Positions 158-12,172 of a DNA stretch of 12,172 nucleotides are shown one piece after another. The stretch's first letter is position 1. Every line of letters starts with the position of its first letter. The notes beneath the pieces are model-generated. The model was not told the origin of the DNA. It ran no database searches and saw only the letters and a list, made by a program, of their open reading frames with translations. The DNA is from Candidatus Hermodarchaeota archaeon (GTDB lineage Archaea; Asgardarchaeota; Lokiarchaeia; Sigyniarchaeales; SOKP01). Both the position numbers and the translations under genes were made by a program. The stretch covers positions 1 to 12,172 of the forward strand of contig JBHLLG010000086.1 of NCBI GenBank assembly GCA_048885925.1. Reading direction: 5' to 3'.

Positions 158-1852
158 ATGACTCAACCTGAAATTAAAGAATTGACTCAAGCAAAACACC
201 TTATGGAAGAAGGAAAACTTAAGGAAGCTTTCCAAATTATTTCGGATTTAGAAAAAAGAGTCGATCTTACTCATCAAGAACTACTTTCATGCAAACTTCT
301 TAAAGCTAATCTATTAGTTAAATTAGGAAACTACTTAGATGATATAAAAATTGCTGAGGAGATTTTTCAAGAATTTCAGAAACTAGGAGATTTAGTATCA
401 TCTTTAGATGCTTTACTCATTCAAGCTTATTCCTATACGATAATGGTCAATATAAATCAAAGTGAAAATCTAATTACCCAAGCAGAAAATTTATTTAAAA
501 CTATTAAAGAAACACTTTCAATAGATCTAAGAGAAAGAGAATCTTTTTTGGTAAGGATAAAGGCTATTATTTACGCTTTTAGAGGAGATATTCACACTGC
601 TCTTGAATTAAATAAAAAGGCTTATGAACTTGCAAGAGATGCAGGAAATAAAGCATTGATCGCTTCGTGTCTTAATAATATTGCTGACATATATTATCAT
701 ATGAAAGAATATGATAAAGCAATAAAGTATGCTAAAGAAGCTATTAAGGTTGCAGGTACGCTGCAACCTGCCCCAGGTGCATTAGGTACCTTAATTGAAA
801 TTTATGTTAGTAAGGGAGATATTAAAGAAGCGAAAGTTTATCTTGATCAGTTGCGTTATTTTTACAAGAAACATGATACTAAACGATATAAAACTCTTAA
901 TTATTATTTTAAGGCTAAGATATTAAAATCAAGTCTACGAGCAAGAGATCGTATTAAAGCAGAAGATATATTTAAAGAGTTAGCTTTGGACAATACCTTA
1001 GATGGTGGATCACGGATTGAAGCGATCATAAACTTATGTGATTTATACCTGACTGAACTTCGGATAACTAATGACCCAGAGATAATAAACGAGATACACC
1101 CAAATATTCAAGAGTTATTAAGTATTGCTAAAAAGCAACATTTATATTTATATTTAGCCGAAACTTATTTTTTGCAAGCAAAACTTTCATTATTAACATT
1201 AGATCTAAAGAAAGCTAAAAGATTTTTAACTCAAGCTCAAAGAATAGCGGAATCATATGGTATAAAACAATTGGCAATGAAAATTTCATACGAGCATGAT
1301 AAATTACTTAGACAAACTAAAATGTGGGAGAGTTTGAATATTTCAGAAGTATCTCTATCTGACCGTTTGGAGCTTAGTGGTTTGAACAAACAAATGGAAA
1401 ATATGGTAAAAAGACGAATGATTGAAGCTCTGGAGATATCAAAAGAAGACCCTGTTATGCTATTAATTTTAACGGAGGGAGGCAATCTTTTATTCTCTAA
1501 AAAATTTATAGAAGATTTTTCATTTGAGGATGACATTTTAGGAGGTTTTCTAACCACCATAAATTATATTATTAGTGAAGTATTTTCTGAAGGTCTTGAT
1601 AGGGCAGTTTTTGGACAATATACTCTTCTTATGATGCCCGTTGAACCATTTTTAATTTGTTACATCTTTAAGGGGCACTCTTATTTTGCTTATCATAAGA
1701 TTAAAAATTTTCTTGATTCAATAAAAAATGATAGTGTGATTTGGCAATCTTTACAGAATTTTTTCCAAAAGAGTAAATCTATTCAAATGAACGACATTCC
1801 CTCGCTTGAAACCATCATAACTGAGATTTTTTCCAAGAAAAATATTCAGTAG
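158..1852 (+). CDS. Tetratricopeptide-repeat protein with C-terminal longin-like domain (564 aa)
   Basis: Helical repeats with TPR-like consensus (e.g. ASCLNNIADIYYHMKEYDKAIKYAKEAIKV, LIEIYVSKGDIKEAKVYLDQL). The last ~130 aa (PVMLLILTEGGNLLFSKKF...DDILGGFLTTINYIISEVF...YTLLMMPVEPFLICYIFKG) follow the beta-beta-alpha-beta-beta-beta-alpha pattern of longin/roadblock-like domains seen in Asgard proteins. Confidence 0.85.
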   Translation: MTQPEIKELTQAKHLMEEGKLKEAFQIISDLEKRVDLTHQELLSCKLLKANLLVKLGNYLDDIKIAEEIFQEFQKLGDLVSSLDALLIQAYSYTIMVNINQSENLITQAENLFKTIKETLSIDLRERESFLVRIKAIIYAFRGDIHTALELNKKAYELARDAGNKALIASCLNNIADIYYHMKEYDKAIKYAKEAIKVAGTLQPAPGALGTLIEIYVSKGDIKEAKVYLDQLRYFYKKHDTKRYKTLNYYFKAKILKSSLRARDRIKAEDIFKELALDNTLDGGSRIEAIINLCDLYLTELRITNDPEIINEIHPNIQELLSIAKKQHLYLYLAETYFLQAKLSLLTLDLKKAKRFLTQAQRIAESYGIKQLAMKISYEHDKLLRQTKMWESLNISEVSLSDRLELSGLNKQMENMVKRRMIEALEISKEDPVMLLILTEGGNLLFSKKFIEDFSFEDDILGGFLTTINYIISEVFSEGLDRAVFGQYTLLMMPVEPFLICYIFKGHSYFAYHKIKNFLDSIKNDSVIWQSLQNFFQKSKSIQMNDIPSLETIITEIFSKKNIQ

Positions 1853-1882
1853 AACTCTATCATTCAATCACTTCAGCTCACA

Positions 1883-1896
1883 AAAATTTTATATTA
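1883..1896 (+). promoter_or_regulatory. Candidate BRE/TATA promoter for the Rab-like GTPase
   Basis: AAAAA followed by TTTTATATT about 60 nt upstream of the ATG at 1956; AT-rich background lowers specificity. Confidence 0.3.
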
Positions 1897-1955
1897 ATAT
1901 AAAACTGATCTTACATTAGAAAAAAATTATAAATTGATTATAATACAGAAATCTA

Positions 1956-2498
1956 ATGAAGAATTCTGAGGAATTTCGATTTAAGGTAGCAGTCGTTGGA
2001 GATGGGGCAGTAGGTAAAACATCCTTAATTAAAAAATACACCAAAGGAACATTTGATAAGGATTATGTAAAAACAATTGGGGCTCAACTTTCAAAATATA
2101 ATAAAGAAATTAATGGAGACATGATTAGATTAATATTCTGGGATATAGCAGGTCAAGATGATTTCAATTTTTTACATCATTTGTTTTATAAAGAGGCTAA
2201 AGCAGCAATTATAGTATATAGCCTTGAAGAAAATGAACTTGGTCAAAATAGCTTCACACATATAAAGAACTGGCATGAGGTTGTAGTAAAAAATTGTGGA
2301 AATATTCCTGTTGTTTTATTTGCTAATAAAGCTGATTTAGTAGATGAAAATAGTCTAACTACAACGGAAATCCAAAAACTTACTAAAGAATATAATTTTT
2401 TGAATTTCTTTTTCACATCAGCAAAAACAGGACAAGGGGTTGTAGAAGCATTTAATACAATTATAGAACGATTATATTTAAAATTTAAAGAGTTTTAA
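1956..2498 (+). CDS. Ras-superfamily small GTPase, Rab-like (180 aa)
   Basis: G1 GDGAVGKT, G2 YVKTIG, G3 WDIAGQ, G4 NKAD, G5 TSAK. KTIGAQL and LIFWDIAGQ resemble Rab switch regions. No C-terminal Cys prenylation motif. Confidence 0.93.
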   Translation: MKNSEEFRFKVAVVGDGAVGKTSLIKKYTKGTFDKDYVKTIGAQLSKYNKEINGDMIRLIFWDIAGQDDFNFLHHLFYKEAKAAIIVYSLEENELGQNSFTHIKNWHEVVVKNCGNIPVVLFANKADLVDENSLTTTEIQKLTKEYNFLNFFFTSAKTGQGVVEAFNTIIERLYLKFKEF

Positions 2499-2632
2499 TA
2501 ATTTATATGGTTTAATTTCTTCTTAGTACTATATTAGAGTTCTAATCTTTCCTTTAATTGATAAAAAAATTATTGGCTTTTTTAAAGGTATTTTTAAATT
2601 ATCAATTAAATAAATATTGCTTTGATTTAATC

Positions 2633-3226
2633 ATGATTATTGATCATTGCGCTAAAACAATTAGTATTAAAATTGTGTATTTTGGACCAGCATTATCCGG
2701 TAAAACAACCTCAATTAAAGCGTTATTCTCTCACTTTGGGAAAAAAGAGCATTTGACTTCTATCGAAAGCACTATTAATAGAACCTTATTTTTTGATTAT
2801 GGTACAATTACATTTCAAAATGAAGAATGGAAATTAAAAATTCATATATATACCACTACAGGACAAGACTTTTATTTTGTAACACGCCCAATTACATTGC
2901 GGGCTGTAGACGGAGTTATATTTGTCCTAGATTCACATAAAGATGTTTATGAACGAAATCTACTTTCTTGGAAGGAATTACTTTCTTATTTTAATGATTT
3001 AATAAAGGATCTACCAATTATCATTGCATTTAACAAACAAGATTTATCAAATAAATTCAATTCGATAGAATTCTTAAAAAAAATTGAATTTCATAAGTAT
3101 AAGAATATTGATACACGATATACGATAGCATTAAATGGAGAAGGAATTTTAGATTGCTTTGAAGATGCTTTACGATTAATTTTAAAAAAATATTATGATA
3201 ACCAATTAGTTTCAGCAGTTAATTGA
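2633..3226 (+). CDS. mglA: MglA-family small GTPase (197 aa; probable start ATG 2633 rather than TTG 2558)
   Basis: KIVYFGPALSGKTT (MglA-type G1), RTLFFD (intrinsic Arg finger/G2), TTTGQ in place of DxxGQ (MglA has TVPGQ), VDGVIFVLDS, NKQD. MIID..KTISIKIVY matches the usual MglA N-terminus; the 25 upstream codons look like AT-rich intergenic sequence. Confidence 0.85.
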   Translation: MIIDHCAKTISIKIVYFGPALSGKTTSIKALFSHFGKKEHLTSIESTINRTLFFDYGTITFQNEEWKLKIHIYTTTGQDFYFVTRPITLRAVDGVIFVLDSHKDVYERNLLSWKELLSYFNDLIKDLPIIIAFNKQDLSNKFNSIEFLKKIEFHKYKNIDTRYTIALNGEGILDCFEDALRLILKKYYDNQLVSAVN

Positions 3227-3247: not shown

Positions 3248-4459
3248 TCAAAAGAAACTAACTTCTGATACAGGTGATTGAATTCTAATACTCTGTTGAC
3301 TATTATCCTCTAAAATTGAAATTAGAGCTGTGACATTTTGCTTAGTCTCATAGATAATTTCTTTCTCTTCCCCTTTAGACCAAAAATTAAAACCAGTTAT
3401 ACTTGGAGCAGTTTCAAAAAGACCCTCCTGTAATCCAGAAATCTTTACAGAAACTCCTTTAAGATCTTCTTTTGAGATATTTTTTATTCTTAATATATAT
3501 TTATCAATGTCAGAATCAATTGAAACAACTTTATAGGTCTTTTGGAATTTTGAAATACCCTCAAATAAAGAAGATGCTTTACCCACTCCTTCAACAAATA
3601 AGTTAATGCTTACCTTCTTCTCTGAAATAGGACCTGTTGAGATGGTTATAGGCACTTCAAGTTTAATTGGTTCTACCCCATATTCAGGCTTTTTATTTCC
3701 AATGAAAAGTAAGCTCCATTTTGTGTAAAACCCATATCTAAATCCAAACGCTTCCTTCTCAGAAGGTGACCACAGAAAATTTTGGCTTGGTTCAGCAACT
3801 TCCGGGACTTTTAACAATAAAAACTCTTTTTCAAAATTTTGAGTTCGAACATCACCGGCAATCGCGGGAGGAAGTTCTTCGACTTTGCGGCAATTTTGAC
3901 CATACGCTTCACAATAACAAATCAAGTTGGAATTTTGTAGTAATCTGACTTCAAGTTGTTTAAGTTCTTCTGAAGTATATCCAATTTTTATAGTTTCTCC
4001 AGGTTTATATATATCTTTAGTTAGCAAAACATTCAACCCTGAAAGTGAAAAAGAGACTGGTTTTGGTGATTTTGCTTGATCTCCTGAATCTCTTGCCTTT
4101 ATTACAACATCATGAGTTTTGTTAATTAATAAATCTTCTTCAGGATTAATTGGATTCGGTTGTCTTAAAATTAATTTTAATGAATATTTGAGATTTCTAT
4201 TTTTTATAGTTGGGACAATATTACTCTTAATAAGGATAGATTTTTCACGAATATATTCTCCCGCTTCAAAATGCCCTTTTGAAAAAATTTCTTCTTTTGA
4301 AACTTGAACTTCCTTCAAGCATGGTGGATTAGTTATTAATCTAATCCCACTCCAAAAAATATCTGATTCTTCTTCGAAATTGAATTTAGCCAATACTCCA
4401 AGTTTATCTCCAATAAAAATAGAACCTTCATTTAAGTCTCGTAATTCTAACTTTACCAA
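3248..4459 (-). CDS. Arrestin/Vps26/SpoOM-fold-like beta-sandwich protein with Cys cluster and extra C-terminal Ig-like domain (403 aa, TTG start)
   Basis: Long all-beta ORF. GHFEAGEY..K.ILI.SNIVPTI...NLKYSLKLIL resembles the arrestin-N end; LTKDIYKPGETIKI resembles the arrestin-C start (xYxPGExI); LEVPITI closes the second sandwich. The fold is inferred by eye, while the ORF itself is secure. Confidence 0.65.
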   Translation of the reverse strand: MVKLELRDLNEGSIFIGDKLGVLAKFNFEEESDIFWSGIRLITNPPCLKEVQVSKEEIFSKGHFEAGEYIREKSILIKSNIVPTIKNRNLKYSLKLILRQPNPINPEEDLLINKTHDVVIKARDSGDQAKSPKPVSFSLSGLNVLLTKDIYKPGETIKIGYTSEELKQLEVRLLQNSNLICYCEAYGQNCRKVEELPPAIAGDVRTQNFEKEFLLLKVPEVAEPSQNFLWSPSEKEAFGFRYGFYTKWSLLFIGNKKPEYGVEPIKLEVPITISTGPISEKKVSINLFVEGVGKASSLFEGISKFQKTYKVVSIDSDIDKYILRIKNISKEDLKGVSVKISGLQEGLFETAPSITGFNFWSKGEEKEIIYETKQNVTALISILEDNSQQSIRIQSPVSEVSFF

Positions 4460-5793: not shown

Positions 5794-6642
5794 ATGCATG
5801 AGCTTATATTTTTCAGTATGTTTTTATTAGTTTTGATAAGAGTAGTTGGAGTGATTGTCTCTGTGAATTTTTATCATGAATCAAAATCTAATACATACAT
5901 TTATTTCATTATTGGATGGTTTTTTTGGATTATAGCAGGTATTGTTGCCTTACTTTCTGCCATTACTTATAATCAAATACAAGAAAAGATGTTTCTTTTA
6001 ATGAATTATATTATCGGACCGATTGCGATATTTTTTTTAGCAGTTGGACTAAGCTCCTATTACATTAAAATCTCTACTAATAAAATTAAGTATATTTCTG
6101 TGCTCTTAATAATTTTTCCGTTAATTGTTAATTTTTCTATAGGAATAGTCCTTGTAGGATTATATGCTCGGATCTTTCAATTTTTGGGAATTATTTTAGC
6201 ATTTCTATTACCTTTTTTGAAATATGATACTTTTAAGAAAAGAATAGGAAAAAGTATTAGATGGTATTATCTGACATGCTTTTCAATAGTTATCTATATT
6301 CCATTAGCAATTTCAAATATGATAAATTCTGCATTATCTGGTTCATTTCAAAGTCAAGACCTCGCTATTATCATCGGAGCATATTCCTCTATTATTTTAA
6401 TGACTATTTTACTTATAGCTTTTATAATTCATTTAGAATACACAATCTCTAACGAACAACATAGTCAGTTGAAGGATAAATACTCTCACGACCTAGGAAA
6501 TATTATGCAAGTAATTTATAGTTCAGCTGAGCTGTTTAAAAGAATTTTAAACATAGAGAAAATTGACAATGATAAATTGGATTTAATAGAAAAAAAATGT
6601 AGGGAAGCTTCAAAATTAATAAAAGAAATAAGAAACATCTAA
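5794..6642 (+). CDS. ~7-TM membrane sensor with C-terminal HisKA/DHp (H-box) domain, lacking the HATPase catalytic domain (282 aa)
   Basis: About seven hydrophobic segments in aa 1-215, then LKDKYSHDLGNIMQVIYSSAELF (H-box) and a second helix LDLIEKKCREASKLIKEIRNI, then the stop. No N/G1/F/G2 boxes. Confidence 0.8.
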   Translation: MHELIFFSMFLLVLIRVVGVIVSVNFYHESKSNTYIYFIIGWFFWIIAGIVALLSAITYNQIQEKMFLLMNYIIGPIAIFFLAVGLSSYYIKISTNKIKYISVLLIIFPLIVNFSIGIVLVGLYARIFQFLGIILAFLLPFLKYDTFKKRIGKSIRWYYLTCFSIVIYIPLAISNMINSALSGSFQSQDLAIIIGAYSSIILMTILLIAFIIHLEYTISNEQHSQLKDKYSHDLGNIMQVIYSSAELFKRILNIEKIDNDKLDLIEKKCREASKLIKEIRNI

Positions 6643-6677
6643 CTACTATGCAAAATACACATCTTTAGGGGATTATT

Positions 6678-7055
6678 ATAGCTAAAATCTTAATTGTTGA
6701 TGATGATATCGACATTGTCAACCTTTTTGAGCAATTTTTGAAGTTCAGGGAGCATGAAGTTGTTGCAAAGGCTTTCAATGGAGAGGAAGCGTTAGAAATT
6801 TATAAAAACTTTCAAAATTCGCTAGATATAATTCTGATGGATCATAGAATGCCCTCAAAAAATGGTTTAGAGGTAACAAAAGATATTTTAGCAATTAATC
6901 CTGATTGTAAAATAATTTTTGTGAGTGCTGATTATAGTGTTAGAGAAAAAGCTTTAACTGTTGGCGCGATTGATTTTTTAGAAAAACCTATAGATTTCAA
7001 CACTTTATTTAATATGATTAATAAATATACTCAGATTGAGGCTAAAATTCATTAA
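6678..7055 (+). CDS. Single-domain CheY-like response regulator receiver (125 aa if started at ATA 6678)
   Basis: The frame upstream of the called TTG 6738 reads AKILIVDDDIDIVNLFEQFL (beta1 and acidic pocket). Phospho-acceptor DIILMDHRMP, IIFVSA and FLEKP are present. In-frame TAG at 6666; SD-like AGGGGA at 6667-6672. Product secure, exact start inferred. Confidence 0.9.
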   Translation: MAKILIVDDDIDIVNLFEQFLKFREHEVVAKAFNGEEALEIYKNFQNSLDIILMDHRMPSKNGLEVTKDILAINPDCKIIFVSADYSVREKALTVGAIDFLEKPIDFNTLFNMINKYTQIEAKIH

Positions 7056-7885: not shown

Positions 7886-8641
7886 ATAAAAGTAGCAAGA
7901 ATAAAAAAAACCGATATAAAACTACATCCATCTATATTATTATTTATTGGCATAATATTCTATTATGCAATAGTCTTTTATGCTAAATCTAGAAATAATA
8001 TTCCTTTAAATGAACTCATAGTTTTTGGTATTGTAAACGCTATTATTATTTTATTTTCTATCTTTATTCATGAATTAGCACATTTAATAGTAGCTCAACG
8101 ATATGAACTAGAAATACCTGAAATTATATTGAGTTTTATTGGAGGAAGTTTTGATATGGAAGATGAACATAAAATACCTAACCATCTATTAAAAGTATAT
8201 GCTGCAGGTCCACTCTCTAATTTATTAATGGGTTTATCTTTATTACTAGTTTTAAGAATTCCATATATTAATTTTACTAATTTTATATTAATGTCATTAA
8301 ATTTGTCTGGATATGCCAATATAATTTTAGCCTTTTTTAATTTAATCCCAACTTTCCCCTTAGATGGTGGTCGAATTTTAAAAGCATTAATATTATCAGA
8401 TTCCGATGATCTATATCAAACTACAAAAATTGTTTTTGTGATTGGTAGCATATTTGATCTAGGATTTACTTTCTACGGATTCTACCTTATAGTTATTTCA
8501 AAATTTTCTAATGCTTTATGGTTAATTTTAATTGGTATTTTTTTGTATTTATCAGCACGGTACTCCTATAGATATGAGATTTCAAAATACAAGCAATATT
8601 TAGAAGAAAAGTTTAAAAAAATAGAAAAGACTACAGTATAA
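7886..8641 (+). CDS. Site-2 protease family (M50) intramembrane zinc metalloprotease without CBS domains (~251 aa; start inferred at ATA 7886)
   Basis: The frame is open from TAA 7853-7855. Upstream of the called TTG 8129 it reads KVARIKKTDIKLHPSILLFIG...LFSIFIHELAHLIVAQRY (HExxH). Downstream are AAGPLSN and FNLIPTFPLDGGRIL (NxxPxxxxDG). Product secure, exact start inferred. Confidence 0.88.
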   Translation: MKVARIKKTDIKLHPSILLFIGIIFYYAIVFYAKSRNNIPLNELIVFGIVNAIIILFSIFIHELAHLIVAQRYELEIPEIILSFIGGSFDMEDEHKIPNHLLKVYAAGPLSNLLMGLSLLLVLRIPYINFTNFILMSLNLSGYANIILAFFNLIPTFPLDGGRILKALILSDSDDLYQTTKIVFVIGSIFDLGFTFYGFYLIVISKFSNALWLILIGIFLYLSARYSYRYEISKYKQYLEEKFKKIEKTTV

Positions 8642-9893: not shown

Positions 9894-10808
9894 TTAATCT
9901 GTATGCGCTGAAATAATCAAATCAGCAAATAATTTCATATCATTCAATAGCATGTTTAATTTGTCTTGAGAACTACGGTCTAATTCTCCAGATTTCATTA
10001 TAAGCACAGATATAATATATTTGAAAATATGAAGCTCGATCTCCTTACCATCTCCATCTCCTCCTCTAAACTTCGCACTGTCTGCCATAAAAATGTTCTC
10101 TCTAACAATGTTGCATGCATTAATGAAATCTCTTAAATCTCCTCTTAGAGTTAAACCACTACTGACTCCTTGAACATTATGAACTATAACATTACCAGAT
10201 ATGTCACAAATAATTATCTTTGCCTTAATTTCATCCAATTGCTTTTCTGCTTTTTCAACATGAGCTTTTAACTCACTATATTCTGAAATTAAGACATCTC
10301 TGAAAACTTTAGCTAATTTGTCTTCTTCATAAATACTTGTAAGCATATAATCAAAATCATAGTCCTTAAACATGTCCAGGAAGAGCTCCTTTGCCCTTTT
10401 AACGTTTGTATCAAGGAGCTCTTTCTGATAATCCTCAGTATCGTATTTATGTAAGAATAAAAATATTTTAGGTTTTTCATTATTCTTACGATATAAATCT
10501 AATAGACTTATAAAATAATTTTTTGCCTCTTCAAATGTTTTTGGGTCATGCAAATCGACTATTGGAATAAGAATGTCTGTTCCCCGAAAGATTTCAGGTT
10601 TTTCCATATATTCTTTACGAAATTCTTCTTGACCTCCAAAATCGAAGATTCCAACTTGTAATCCTAAGAAAGGATGTCTTCGAGTTTCATATAAAATAGT
10701 CGGAGCTAATCCTTTTGTCTCTTCGGGTCGTTTAGCTGCAAAAGCCACAGAGTAAACTGATGTCTTTCCGCAACCAGAAAGCCCTACCAACGAAATTTTC
10801 GTACTAAT
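9894..10808 (-). CDS. RagA/Gtr1-like small GTPase with C-terminal roadblock/longin-like domain (~302-304 aa; start upstream of the called TTG 10790)
   Basis: KISLVGLSGCGKTS, ETKGLAPT (switch I), FLGLQVGIFDFGGQ, IFRGTDILI, KIFLFLHKYD (Rag-type HKxD G4) and TSIYE (Rag-type G5), followed by a ~120-aa alpha/beta domain (KIIICDISGNVIVHN...LHIFKYIISVLIMK). Confidence 0.85.
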   Translation of the reverse strand: MSTKISLVGLSGCGKTSVYSVAFAAKRPEETKGLAPTILYETRRHPFLGLQVGIFDFGGQEEFRKEYMEKPEIFRGTDILIPIVDLHDPKTFEEAKNYFISLLDLYRKNNEKPKIFLFLHKYDTEDYQKELLDTNVKRAKELFLDMFKDYDFDYMLTSIYEEDKLAKVFRDVLISEYSELKAHVEKAEKQLDEIKAKIIICDISGNVIVHNVQGVSSGLTLRGDLRDFINACNIVRENIFMADSAKFRGGDGDGKEIELHIFKYIISVLIMKSGELDRSSQDKLNMLLNDMKLFADLIISAHTD

Positions 10809-10814
10809 TCACCT
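10809..10814 (-). promoter_or_regulatory. Archaeal Shine-Dalgarno-like site (AGGTGA) upstream of the Rag-like GTPase
   Basis: Minus strand reads AAAAAGGTGA ATT AGT ACG AAA ATT TCG TTG; GGTGA is the canonical archaeal SD core. Confidence 0.5.
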
Positions 10815-10891: not shown

Positions 10892-12172
10892 TTATTCTTT
10901 TGGTGCTACTTTTATCGTTCTTGAAAAAATCTTGCCAAAAGCTTCTGTTGATGCTTCAACTAAAATGTTAGCCTTAATAGGCTCACCATCTGGTAGATCT
11001 AGAGGATATCCAATTTCAACGGTTTCAAAAGGGAATAATTCTCTTATATTTGTTATCCATGGTCTTTTTTCAAATAATTCTTCTACAGACACGATTCTAA
11101 TTTTCAAATCTTCTAAAACGTAACCAATGGTGTTTGTTAATGAGATGCTCAGAACTTTATCTTCTTCATTTAATTCATTTGAAACACTTAAGAATCTTCT
11201 TGTACCAAGAGGAGGTTTGACAACAACTTGGTCTTCTTCTGGTTTGGTTTCTATTCTTGGTTCCTCTGTATCTTCTAAGTCCCTTACTACAAAAACTTTC
11301 CTTTTTTGAACTGTGTATTGTGAAACTTTTTTCAATTTTGCTAAAAATAAAACAGCATTTAAGTTAATAGAATTAAAAGGTTCTATTTTTATGTATCCCT
11401 TCTTAGCAGCATCTTCCATGATTTCAGCACCTAAGCCAGTTCGAGCAAAAACTGTATTTCTATTGGCTCCACTCCCTACTGACCCTACTGAAATATCTGC
11501 TTTTTCAGCAGTCAAGTCTGTACAGAAATTACAACTTGATGATTTAAATTTGTCTAATTGCTTAATTGTATATGATTTGATAGGTTCTCCTTTTGGATCA
11601 TAATACAAGTTAAATTTCCCCTTACTAATATTCATCTTTTGAACTTTTGTTAAATTTATCCCCTCTTTTTCAAAAAAGGGATAGAGAGCCTCTGGAGCAA
11701 AACTATCCATACAGAAAAGTCCAATTTTTAATACATGGCATCTCATGAAATATTTCAACATACCAGTTGGACTGTCAAACATTTTCGCAACAGCATCTAT
11801 ATTACATGGTGTCCCCACGAATGCTATCGATCTAAAATCTTGTCTCACTGCATCCATTAATGCTTCTACTGTTTGAGAATGACTGTAAATCGATCCTGAG
11901 GCTTTAATAGTGTCATCTTTGTTGGTAATAATTTGAGCTACGGGATACCATGGTTTACTGGGATCTCGCATTGTTACCACAGCAGCATCTATTAAATGTT
12001 CATCAAATAAATAGCAGAGTAAACTAGTTACAGTTCCACCATCTTGACCTCCAACTACTTCTGGGATATTTGTGTTTGCTACATATCCAGTTTTAAAATC
12101 TCCCATGAGCTGATAAGGATCCGTGATCGTTCTTGGACATTGATTATAACAAATTCCGCATCCTGTGCATTT
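10892..12172 (-). CDS. Coenzyme F420 hydrogenase/dehydrogenase beta-subunit family (FrhB/FdhB/FpoF-like) protein with N-terminal 4Fe-4S ferredoxin motif and extra C-terminal beta-sandwich domain; 5'-truncated by the window edge
   Basis: GQDGGTVTSLL, FVGTPC, IGLFC, CNFCTD and ADISVGSVG are FrhB-family motifs. The frame stays open upstream of ATG 12106 to the window edge, reading KCTGCGICYNQCPRTITDPYQL (CxxCxxCxxxCP). About 135 extra C-terminal residues follow the core. Confidence 0.92.
   Translation of the reverse strand, partial: KCTGCGICYNQCPRTITDPYQLMGDFKTGYVANTNIPEVVGGQDGGTVTSLLCYLFDEHLIDAAVVTMRDPSKPWYPVAQIITNKDDTIKASGSIYSHSQTVEALMDAVRQDFRSIAFVGTPCNIDAVAKMFDSPTGMLKYFMRCHVLKIGLFCMDSFAPEALYPFFEKEGINLTKVQKMNISKGKFNLYYDPKGEPIKSYTIKQLDKFKSSSCNFCTDLTAEKADISVGSVGSGANRNTVFARTGLGAEIMEDAAKKGYIKIEPFNSINLNAVLFLAKLKKVSQYTVQKRKVFVVRDLEDTEEPRIETKPEEDQVVVKPPLGTRRFLSVSNELNEEDKVLSISLTNTIGYVLEDLKIRIVSVEELFEKRPWITNIRELFPFETVEIGYPLDLPDGEPIKANILVEASTEAFGKIFSRTIKVAPKE

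Follow-up and report, generated by a model that had tools for sequence, protein, structure and literature searches.

The window analysed here is the whole 12,172-base contig C86 (JBHLLG010000086.1) of a 3.9-Mb, 95%-complete genome of Candidatus Hermodarchaeota archaeon. On its minus strand it encodes a FrhB-family Fe-S flavoprotein, a RagA/Gtr1-like GTPase and a 403-amino-acid (aa) arrestin-like protein. The FrhB-family protein and the arrestin-like protein each end in a small beta-sandwich domain, referred to below as the tail. The origin of these two tails, the proteins that carry related tails and the conserved gene order around the GTPase are the subject of this study. The features of the three genes, given as open reading frames (ORFs) and their parts, are as follows; E-values for the tails are from a hidden Markov model (HMM) of the tail superfamily.

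10892..12172, minus strand: FrhB-family ORF, truncated at its 5' end by the contig boundary; P0005, an identical protein of full length, has 496 aa
11372..12172, minus strand: FrhB-family Fe-S flavoprotein core, comprising the end of a 2x[4Fe-4S] ferredoxin domain, FrhB_N and FrhB_C
11219..11284, minus strand: acidic, Pro-containing linker RDLEDTEEPRIETKPEEDQVVV, read from the translation, between FrhB_C (match end at residue 267) and the first modelled strand
10895..11218, minus strand: C-terminal beta-sandwich tail of the FrhB-family protein, last 108 codons, with the stop codon at 10892-10894 (E 4.2e-28)
9894..10802, minus strand: RagA/Gtr1-like GTPase, ~90 bases downstream of the FrhB-like gene
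3248..4459, minus strand: 403-aa arrestin-like ORF, with no Pfam match in the contig copy
3575..4459, minus strand: body of the arrestin-like protein, of which residues ~136-277 (3629-4054) resemble Arrestin_C
3251..3574, minus strand: C-terminal beta-sandwich tail of the arrestin-like protein, last 108 codons, with the stop codon at 3248-3250 (E 5.0e-29)

The core of the FrhB-family protein matches PF04422 at 69.8 bits (cut-off 22) and PF04432 at 134.7 bits (cut-off 23.3), and Fer4 fragments are found at residues 1-22 of the contig-cut protein. Both Pfam domains and the N-terminal 2x[4Fe-4S] domain are shared with the FrhB/FpoF/FdhB family, from which the contig protein differs in its extra linker and tail. 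Its scores are below the cut-offs for true FrhB (TIGR03289, 162.7 against 331.5) and true FpoF (NF040616, 118.6 against 475), and it is a member of the FrhB/FdhB family rather than an orthologue of either protein.

Both tails belong to one Ig-like domain family

No Pfam family was found for either tail at E<=0.1, which leaves ~105 aa at the end of the FrhB-like protein and ~97 aa at the end of the 403-aa protein without a match. A sequence-only reading of the contig had aligned the two stretches by eye and claimed that they are copies of one beta-sandwich domain. The 24-residue ungapped block at the centre of that alignment, with 10 of 24 positions identical, is present on re-reading. Pairwise evidence of this kind is insufficient alone, as the contig pair does not rise above chance by BLASTP, Smith-Waterman or shallow hhalign comparison. 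BLASTP of tail against tail gave no alignment at E<=100. The Smith-Waterman score of the tails (41, against 28.5 +/- 4.9 for shuffled sequences) was reached by 52 of 2000 tail shuffles, and with the full protein the score was reached by 202 of 500 shuffles. Profiles of 46 FrhB tails (A1) and 33 arrestin-like tails (A2), both shallow with an effective sequence number (Neff) of ~1.8-2.0, were aligned by hhalign at a probability of only 4.7% (P 0.0085), though in the register of the by-eye alignment, and the HMM of each set, searched against the host genome at E<=10, matched only itself.

The similarity became significant once diverged relatives were added to the profiles. When A1 alone was searched exhaustively as an HMM against 1.84 billion representative proteins, 20 proteins were found at E<=0.001, among them same-family fragments and four diverged full-length FrhB-family proteins with tails (P0253, P0254, P0257 and P0259). 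The search also found P0262, a 349-aa protein with a C-terminal tail and no FrhB core. Three repetitive proteins (P0250, P0255 and P0258), each with 8-19 short matched stretches, were judged spurious and excluded from all alignments. When A1 was extended by eleven diverged tails (A3), hhalign against A2 gave a probability of 92.9% (P 3.7e-7) over 70 columns, again in the by-eye register, and a stricter profile containing only tails on a proven FrhB core gave 82% (P 1e-5) against the arrestin-like tails. Widening the other side had the same effect: the narrow A1 profile aligned with three diverged arrestin-like tails at 94.8% (P 5.5e-8, 85 columns), and A3 aligned with the widened arrestin-like set at 97.0% (P 8.4e-11, 94 columns).

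Control comparisons remained at background. A panel of 46 segments, each of 108 residues, was cut from ten families conserved at these loci; the two segments of the arrestin-like tail scored ~42 and the next non-self segments, which include the arrestin-like protein's own two other domains, scored at most 18.9. In a shuffle control, 100 column-shuffled versions of A2 scored 11.7 +/- 2.5 with a maximum of 19.8, and the reversed alignment scored 10.8. A generic resemblance among sandwich domains was considered, as in a first panel the FrhB tail matched the middle domain of the arrestin-like protein (P 0.0024) slightly better than its tail (P 0.0078); it was rejected, the middle-domain signal being at background with the widened profile. 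Direct cross-matches were also obtained with HMMER. The A3 profile found the C-terminal tails of arrestin-like orthologues from other Asgard families, which are 29-31% identical to the contig protein (E 1e-52 to 1e-64), at 1.4e-10 and 7.1e-10 per genome and elsewhere at 1e-10 to 1e-11, and the A2 profile reciprocally found FrhB tails at 2.4e-5 and 3.5e-4 in a small database. Homology of the FrhB-like and arrestin-like tails is close to certain, and the claim of one shared domain is borne out by the widened profiles, the HMMER cross-matches and the structural models described below.

AlphaFold2 modelled the FrhB tail with a mean predicted local distance difference test (pLDDT) score of 87.2 and the arrestin-like tail with 79.4, both as seven-strand sandwiches with the same strand order, and the by-eye alignment places equivalent strands of the two models in register. 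Foldseek returned generic immunoglobulin (Ig)-like domains for both tails, with RhoGDI, PDE-delta and the GH3 Fn3-like domain common to both. In VIA, a structure search independent of Foldseek that covered 48,161 chains, the top-50 lists of the two tails had 35 entries in common, often over the same chain range, as in 8oxv_A (Z 10.1 over 475-594 and 9.6 over 474-596 for the two tails). Z scores reached 10.1 and 9.9 over ~100 residues, and both tails have the Ig-like / E-set fold. The best structural matches of both tails are E-set/Ig-like sandwiches such as transglutaminase C-terminal barrels (8oxv, 4kty), GH2 Ig-like domains, DUF3244, ApaG and WxLIP, from which the tails differ in sharing only 5-18% identity with them and in matching many unrelated families at similar Z. 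As scores of ~10 are spread over so many unrelated families, the fold indicates an Ig-like sandwich and no more. The possibility raised in the sequence-only reading that the tails are generic CARDB modules (PF07705) can be rejected: there was no Pfam match to CARDB on either tail or in the scanned tail-bearing proteins, and the arrestin-like protein's other two sandwich domains scored as background. Pfam gave a single trace, WxLIP_HBD in one distant tail, whose 21.1 bits fall short of the 28.9-bit cut-off.

That the similarity reflects chance or convergence of two unrelated beta sandwiches is very improbable. The statistics of the contig pair would be compatible with it, but the profile-profile P values of 3.7e-7 to 8.4e-11 with their panel and shuffle controls, the HMMER cross-matches at ~1e-10 and the common fold and strand register all argue against it. 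All members share the signature N-x5-L-x13/14-FE-x14-E, with N29, L35, F49, E50 and E65 (FrhB-tail numbering) conserved in all three subfamilies described in the next section, and FrhB tails are 63-91% identical within their class. The FrhB-like and arrestin-like tails are thus members of a single family of Ig-like beta-sandwich domains with seven strands, a family that has no name and is restricted to Asgard archaea. Its fold is known but the family is new, and the Pfam version used does not contain it.

A conserved protein set around a Rag-like GTPase

To describe the distribution of the tail, the superfamily alignment A7 was searched over 300 Asgard genomes at E<=1e-5. The domain was present in 103 genomes, with one copy in 14, two in 8, three in 61, four in 17 and five in 3 of them. 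The host genome has three copies, two on contig C86 and one on contig C23. The tail was found on several unrelated proteins, which supports the sequence-only reading of it as a module appended to different hosts:

FrhB-like protein: ~490-505 aa
Arrestin-like protein: 376-403 aa
X350, an uncharacterised protein: 312-392 aa
GltA/NfnB-like NADPH oxidoreductase: 577-588 aa, in part of one genus
CBS protein (L088:2487-3764, minus strand): 426 aa, with the tail at the N-terminus followed by four CBS domains; seen once

The GltA-like host scores 591.7 bits against TIGR01316 (cut-off 471.75). A tree of 46 tails contains an arrestin-like clade (support 94/91) and a clade of FrhB tails with the GltA-like tail (95/86), in which the GltA-like tail is nested among the FrhB tails; the X350 tails fall mostly together, with the CBS tail among them. 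Since the tails group by host, the domain was triplicated long ago and has stayed with its hosts, giving three old subfamilies with usually one copy of each per genome. The term mobile, which had been applied to the module, therefore calls for caution: only the GltA-like and CBS hosts appear to have acquired the tail by later transfers. One further architecture, P0099 (253 aa, a TatD-like N-terminus followed by the end of a FrhB core and a tail), lies on a short contig and was excluded as a probable chimera of assembly or gene calling.

Related FrhB-family proteins without the tail also occur, in agreement with the earlier statement that canonical family members lack it: two nearby genes encode proteins of 472 aa (L084) and 485 aa (L089) with no tail match. 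These genes (L084:3454-4869 and L089:2129-3583, both plus strand), found in one Asgard family, are second FrhB-family genes beside the arrestin-like gene, and their products carry an N-terminal winged-helix domain (HTH_24/MarR-like).

The label arrestin-like is tentative. In its favour are sub-threshold Arrestin_C matches in 7 of 16 family members (best E 0.0024, model positions 7-136), Atlas leads to arrestin/Vps26 clusters at 0.85-0.86 for the body, and one arrestin chain at E = 1, the sole match when the family profile was compared with PDB sequences; no profile match was above threshold, and the Arrestin_N model had no match in the host genome at E<=10. The 397 relatives of X350 in the database all carry the name hypothetical, and no Pfam domain was found in any of them. 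The X350 profile had no match among PDB sequences at E<=10 and did not resemble the Rag protein. By eye, X350 shows a strand-strand-helix-strand pattern and a conserved KSxRxKxRAG loop; with one weak Atlas lead (a cluster at 0.87 of which 19% is labelled NPR2), these features suggest that X350 is possibly longin-like, with a candidate arginine finger. In the host genome, the X350 gene (G000:C23:41035-42093, equivalent to L093:7048-8097; 349 aa) lies near a contig end, downstream of genes for a Ras-family GTPase, a 747-aa TPR protein and an MFS transporter, an arrangement that echoes the TPR and Ras pair of contig C86.

The GTPase encoded beside the FrhB-like gene is a member of the Rag/Gtr1 family, with 84.7 bits against PF04670 (Gtr1_RagA; cut-off 22) and 8yl2_A (1e-23), Gtr1 (5.2e-21), RagA (1.1e-19) and RagC (2e-11) as its closest solved relatives. 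Some 110 residues follow the G domain, and profile matches to Gtr1 reach only residue ~205. The conserved first strand (KISLVG) lies upstream of the first canonical start codon and directly after a TGA stop (10790-10811, minus strand), and the start is probably ACG at 10800-10802 rather than the first TTG at 10790. Among the related loci L001-L049, the equivalent codon is ATG, TTG or GTG in some; it is ACG in the contig and in L004, L008 and L010, and ATA, ATT, GTT or TTT in others. A GGTGA or AGGAG ribosome-binding site always stands a few bases upstream. This combination of varied codons with a constant ribosome-binding site suggests non-canonical, probably weak, translation starts for the Rag-like GTPase.

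The count of gene order covered 49 loci, all from species genomes. Of these, 48 contain the Rag-like gene, and in 45 it follows immediately after the FrhB-like gene on the same strand, at a distance of no more than 300 bases. The arrestin-like gene is found within 10 kb in 35 of the 49, always on the same strand. In the window, other genes are inserted between the Rag-like and arrestin-like genes; in a diverged lineage (L046-L049), the FrhB-like, Rag and arrestin-like genes are directly adjacent. Loci from several Asgard families (L083, L084, L089, L096 and L097) have the order X350 ... FrhB-like, Rag, arrestin-like on one strand. In another family (L094 and L095), two X350 genes, a CBS gene and a FrhB-like gene stand beside Rag with no arrestin-like gene, and other genomes of that genus have no match to the FrhB-type tail. 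In these genomes, as seen in L085 (G184:C129:21000-29000) and L098 (13000-21200), Rag is followed by NuoE-, NuoF-, NuoG- and PyrK-like genes and a tailed GltA-like gene, and then by a CBS gene and two X350 genes; here a GltA/NfnB-like oxidoreductase with a FrhB-type tail replaces the FrhB-like host. Together, these loci show a conserved protein set, marked by the tail, around a RagA/Gtr1-like GTPase.

Other genes accompany the clusters in some lineages. Small genes encoding a CBS pair lie inside the clusters of L085 and L094. In two Asgard families, a large gingipain-type peptidase (Peptidase_C25) with transmembrane ends is encoded between the X350 and FrhB-like genes (L083:6336-8408, L084:8642-11188 and L089:7433-10045).

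The window itself encodes an alpha/beta hydrolase on its minus strand, downstream of the Rag-like gene, and the following genes, assigned by Pfam and listed for context only:

158-1852, plus strand: TPR protein
1956-2498, plus strand: Ras-family GTPase
2558-3226, plus strand: second small GTPase

These three genes (158..3226, plus strand) converge on the arrestin-like gene; in many related loci the second small GTPase gene adjoins the arrestin-like gene. Between the Rag-like and arrestin-like genes, positions 5794-7055 (plus strand) encode two proteins, a multi-pass membrane protein whose HisKA match is faint (E 0.067) and, after it, one with a receiver domain (match from model position 24); this pair is present in some related loci and absent from others. 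The 170-aa ORF at 8129-8641 (plus strand) matches only positions 159-196 of the 221-position Peptidase_M50 model and may be a short or truncated relative of site-2 proteases.

The tail as a putative docking module

The tail is interpreted here as a putative protein-protein docking module on a flexible acidic linker. It would gather the redox enzyme, the arrestin-like adaptor or effector and X350, as a candidate regulator, on a common platform, for which the Rag-like GTPase, or a complex assembled around it, is the most likely candidate. The redox enzyme would act as the input, reporting the ferredoxin/F420 or NAD(P)H state, so that the metabolic redox or energy state would be coupled to the GTPase switch. 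Docking to a common platform, taken as a whole, is a putative role that we favour by a narrow margin over its absence. Within it, the chances that the Rag protein is the direct partner are roughly even. Among the three GTPases of the window, to which the sequence-only reading had pointed, gene order singles out the RagA/Gtr1-like protein. Replacement of the FrhB core by a GltA/NfnB-like one, with the FrhB-type tail and the cluster kept, argues that the tail, and not a particular enzyme, is the constant part. A broader arrangement in Loki-type and several other Asgard archaea is possible but doubtful: a Rag-centred hub sensing metabolic state, into which redox enzymes, energy sensors of the CBS type, an arrestin-like effector and a longin-like regulator would be plugged via one ear-like docking domain.

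A Rag orthologue (E<=1e-50) is found in 89 of the 300 Asgard genomes; it occurs in 7 of the 8 taxonomic families that carry the tail and in none of the 22 families that lack it, counts that are descriptive rather than a test because genomes of one family are kin and co-occurrence overstates their independence. Alongside this kinship, several observations weigh against docking on Rag. In family f15, the exception among the eight, all three genomes encode a single FrhB-like tail protein with no Rag orthologue at E<=1e-50 and none beside it, so that this Rag is not an invariable requirement of the tail. X350 genes frequently have no Rag next to them (L091, L093). The structural matches to many unrelated Ig-like domains point to no function, and the pair of tails on the contig is by itself non-significant.

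The occurrence of the tail in f15 without a Rag orthologue would also suit an arrangement in which the tails bind each other, forming a hetero-oligomer of the three subfamilies; Rag would then do no more than share their regulation, or would act on the complex once it is assembled. The existence of three old subfamilies, with exactly three copies in 61 of 103 genomes, speaks for such an assembly, as does the clustering of tail genes even where Rag is some kilobases away (L085, L094 and L095). The f15 genomes, however, are single-copy, which makes a hetero-oligomer impossible there, and the tightest gene pair consists of the FrhB-like gene and Rag rather than of two tail genes; overall, we consider binding between tails unlikely.

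The structure searches bear on another alternative, in which the tail would be a sandwich that binds membranes, lipids or small ligands in the manner of ML/NPC2, RhoGDI, PDE-delta or UNC119 and would place its hosts at the same membrane site. Among the Foldseek matches, RhoGDI and PDE-delta are common to both tails, and the FrhB tail additionally matches NPC2/ML and UNC119. All of these are low-scoring (E 4e-4 to 7e-3, TMq 0.43-0.60) and stand among many unrelated Ig-like domains, and the conserved N, L, FE and E, as judged from the alignment, do not appear to form a hydrophobic pocket signature, making this role quite unlikely.

Slightly less likely still is an old structural role, in which the tail would have been copied long ago among neighbouring genes and kept for folding or stability; its hosts would have no partner in common, and the cluster would be a matter of history. 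Ig-like domains are common spacers, and local duplication could pass one from gene to gene. Against this are the conservation of the signature residues in all three subfamilies, the high identity of FrhB tails within their class, the survival of the tail through an enzyme-core swap and the retention of the cluster across at least 6 Asgard families.

Relation to known systems

Asgard archaea encode many Rag-, Rab- and Arf-like GTPases. For one of these proteins, the findings provide a concrete and conserved candidate set: an Fe-S flavoenzyme, an arrestin-like protein and X350, all sharing one domain. As the set is tagged with this domain and encoded beside Rag, the partnership is directly testable. 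Genome layout rarely pairs a GTPase with its regulators, according to Tran et al. No description of the tail domain or of the cluster was found in the literature searched, PMC10933270 included; supplementary tables of eukaryotic signature proteins (ESPs) may list some of the proteins. As far as found, the protein set around this Asgard Rag-like GTPase is undescribed.

The closest functional analogy to the tail is offered by the ear domains of clathrin adaptors and the BBSome, a resemblance that is weak. Adaptor/BBSome ear and GAE domains are protein docking platforms near machinery controlled by small GTPases, and the clathrin adaptor/BBSome ear is, like the tail, a small C-terminal Ig-like sandwich on a flexible linker. 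GAE_BBS1 (PF23304) was matched on the tails of 2 of 17 arrestin-like members at E 0.015 and 0.095 (16.0 and 13.4 bits against a cut-off of 27), and BBSome chains were found by VIA with Z 8.7 (6vbu_1) and 7.7 (6vbu_9), no higher than many unrelated folds. Unlike adaptor subunits, the hosts of the tail are a redox enzyme, an arrestin-like protein and X350.

The eukaryotic Rag module comprises RagA/Gtr1, the longin-type GAPs GATOR1 and FLCN-FNIP, and the Ragulator scaffold. The Asgard clusters likewise contain a RagA/Gtr1-like GTPase, here encoded with candidate metabolic-state sensors (the redox enzymes and CBS proteins) and a candidate regulator. To our knowledge, nothing in the eukaryotic module corresponds to the shared tail, the FrhB-like enzyme or the arrestin-like protein. 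If the Rag-centred hub exists, eukaryotic Rag nutrient signalling would have in it either a forerunner in archaea or an analogue of independent origin, one whose input is the cellular redox state and not amino acids.

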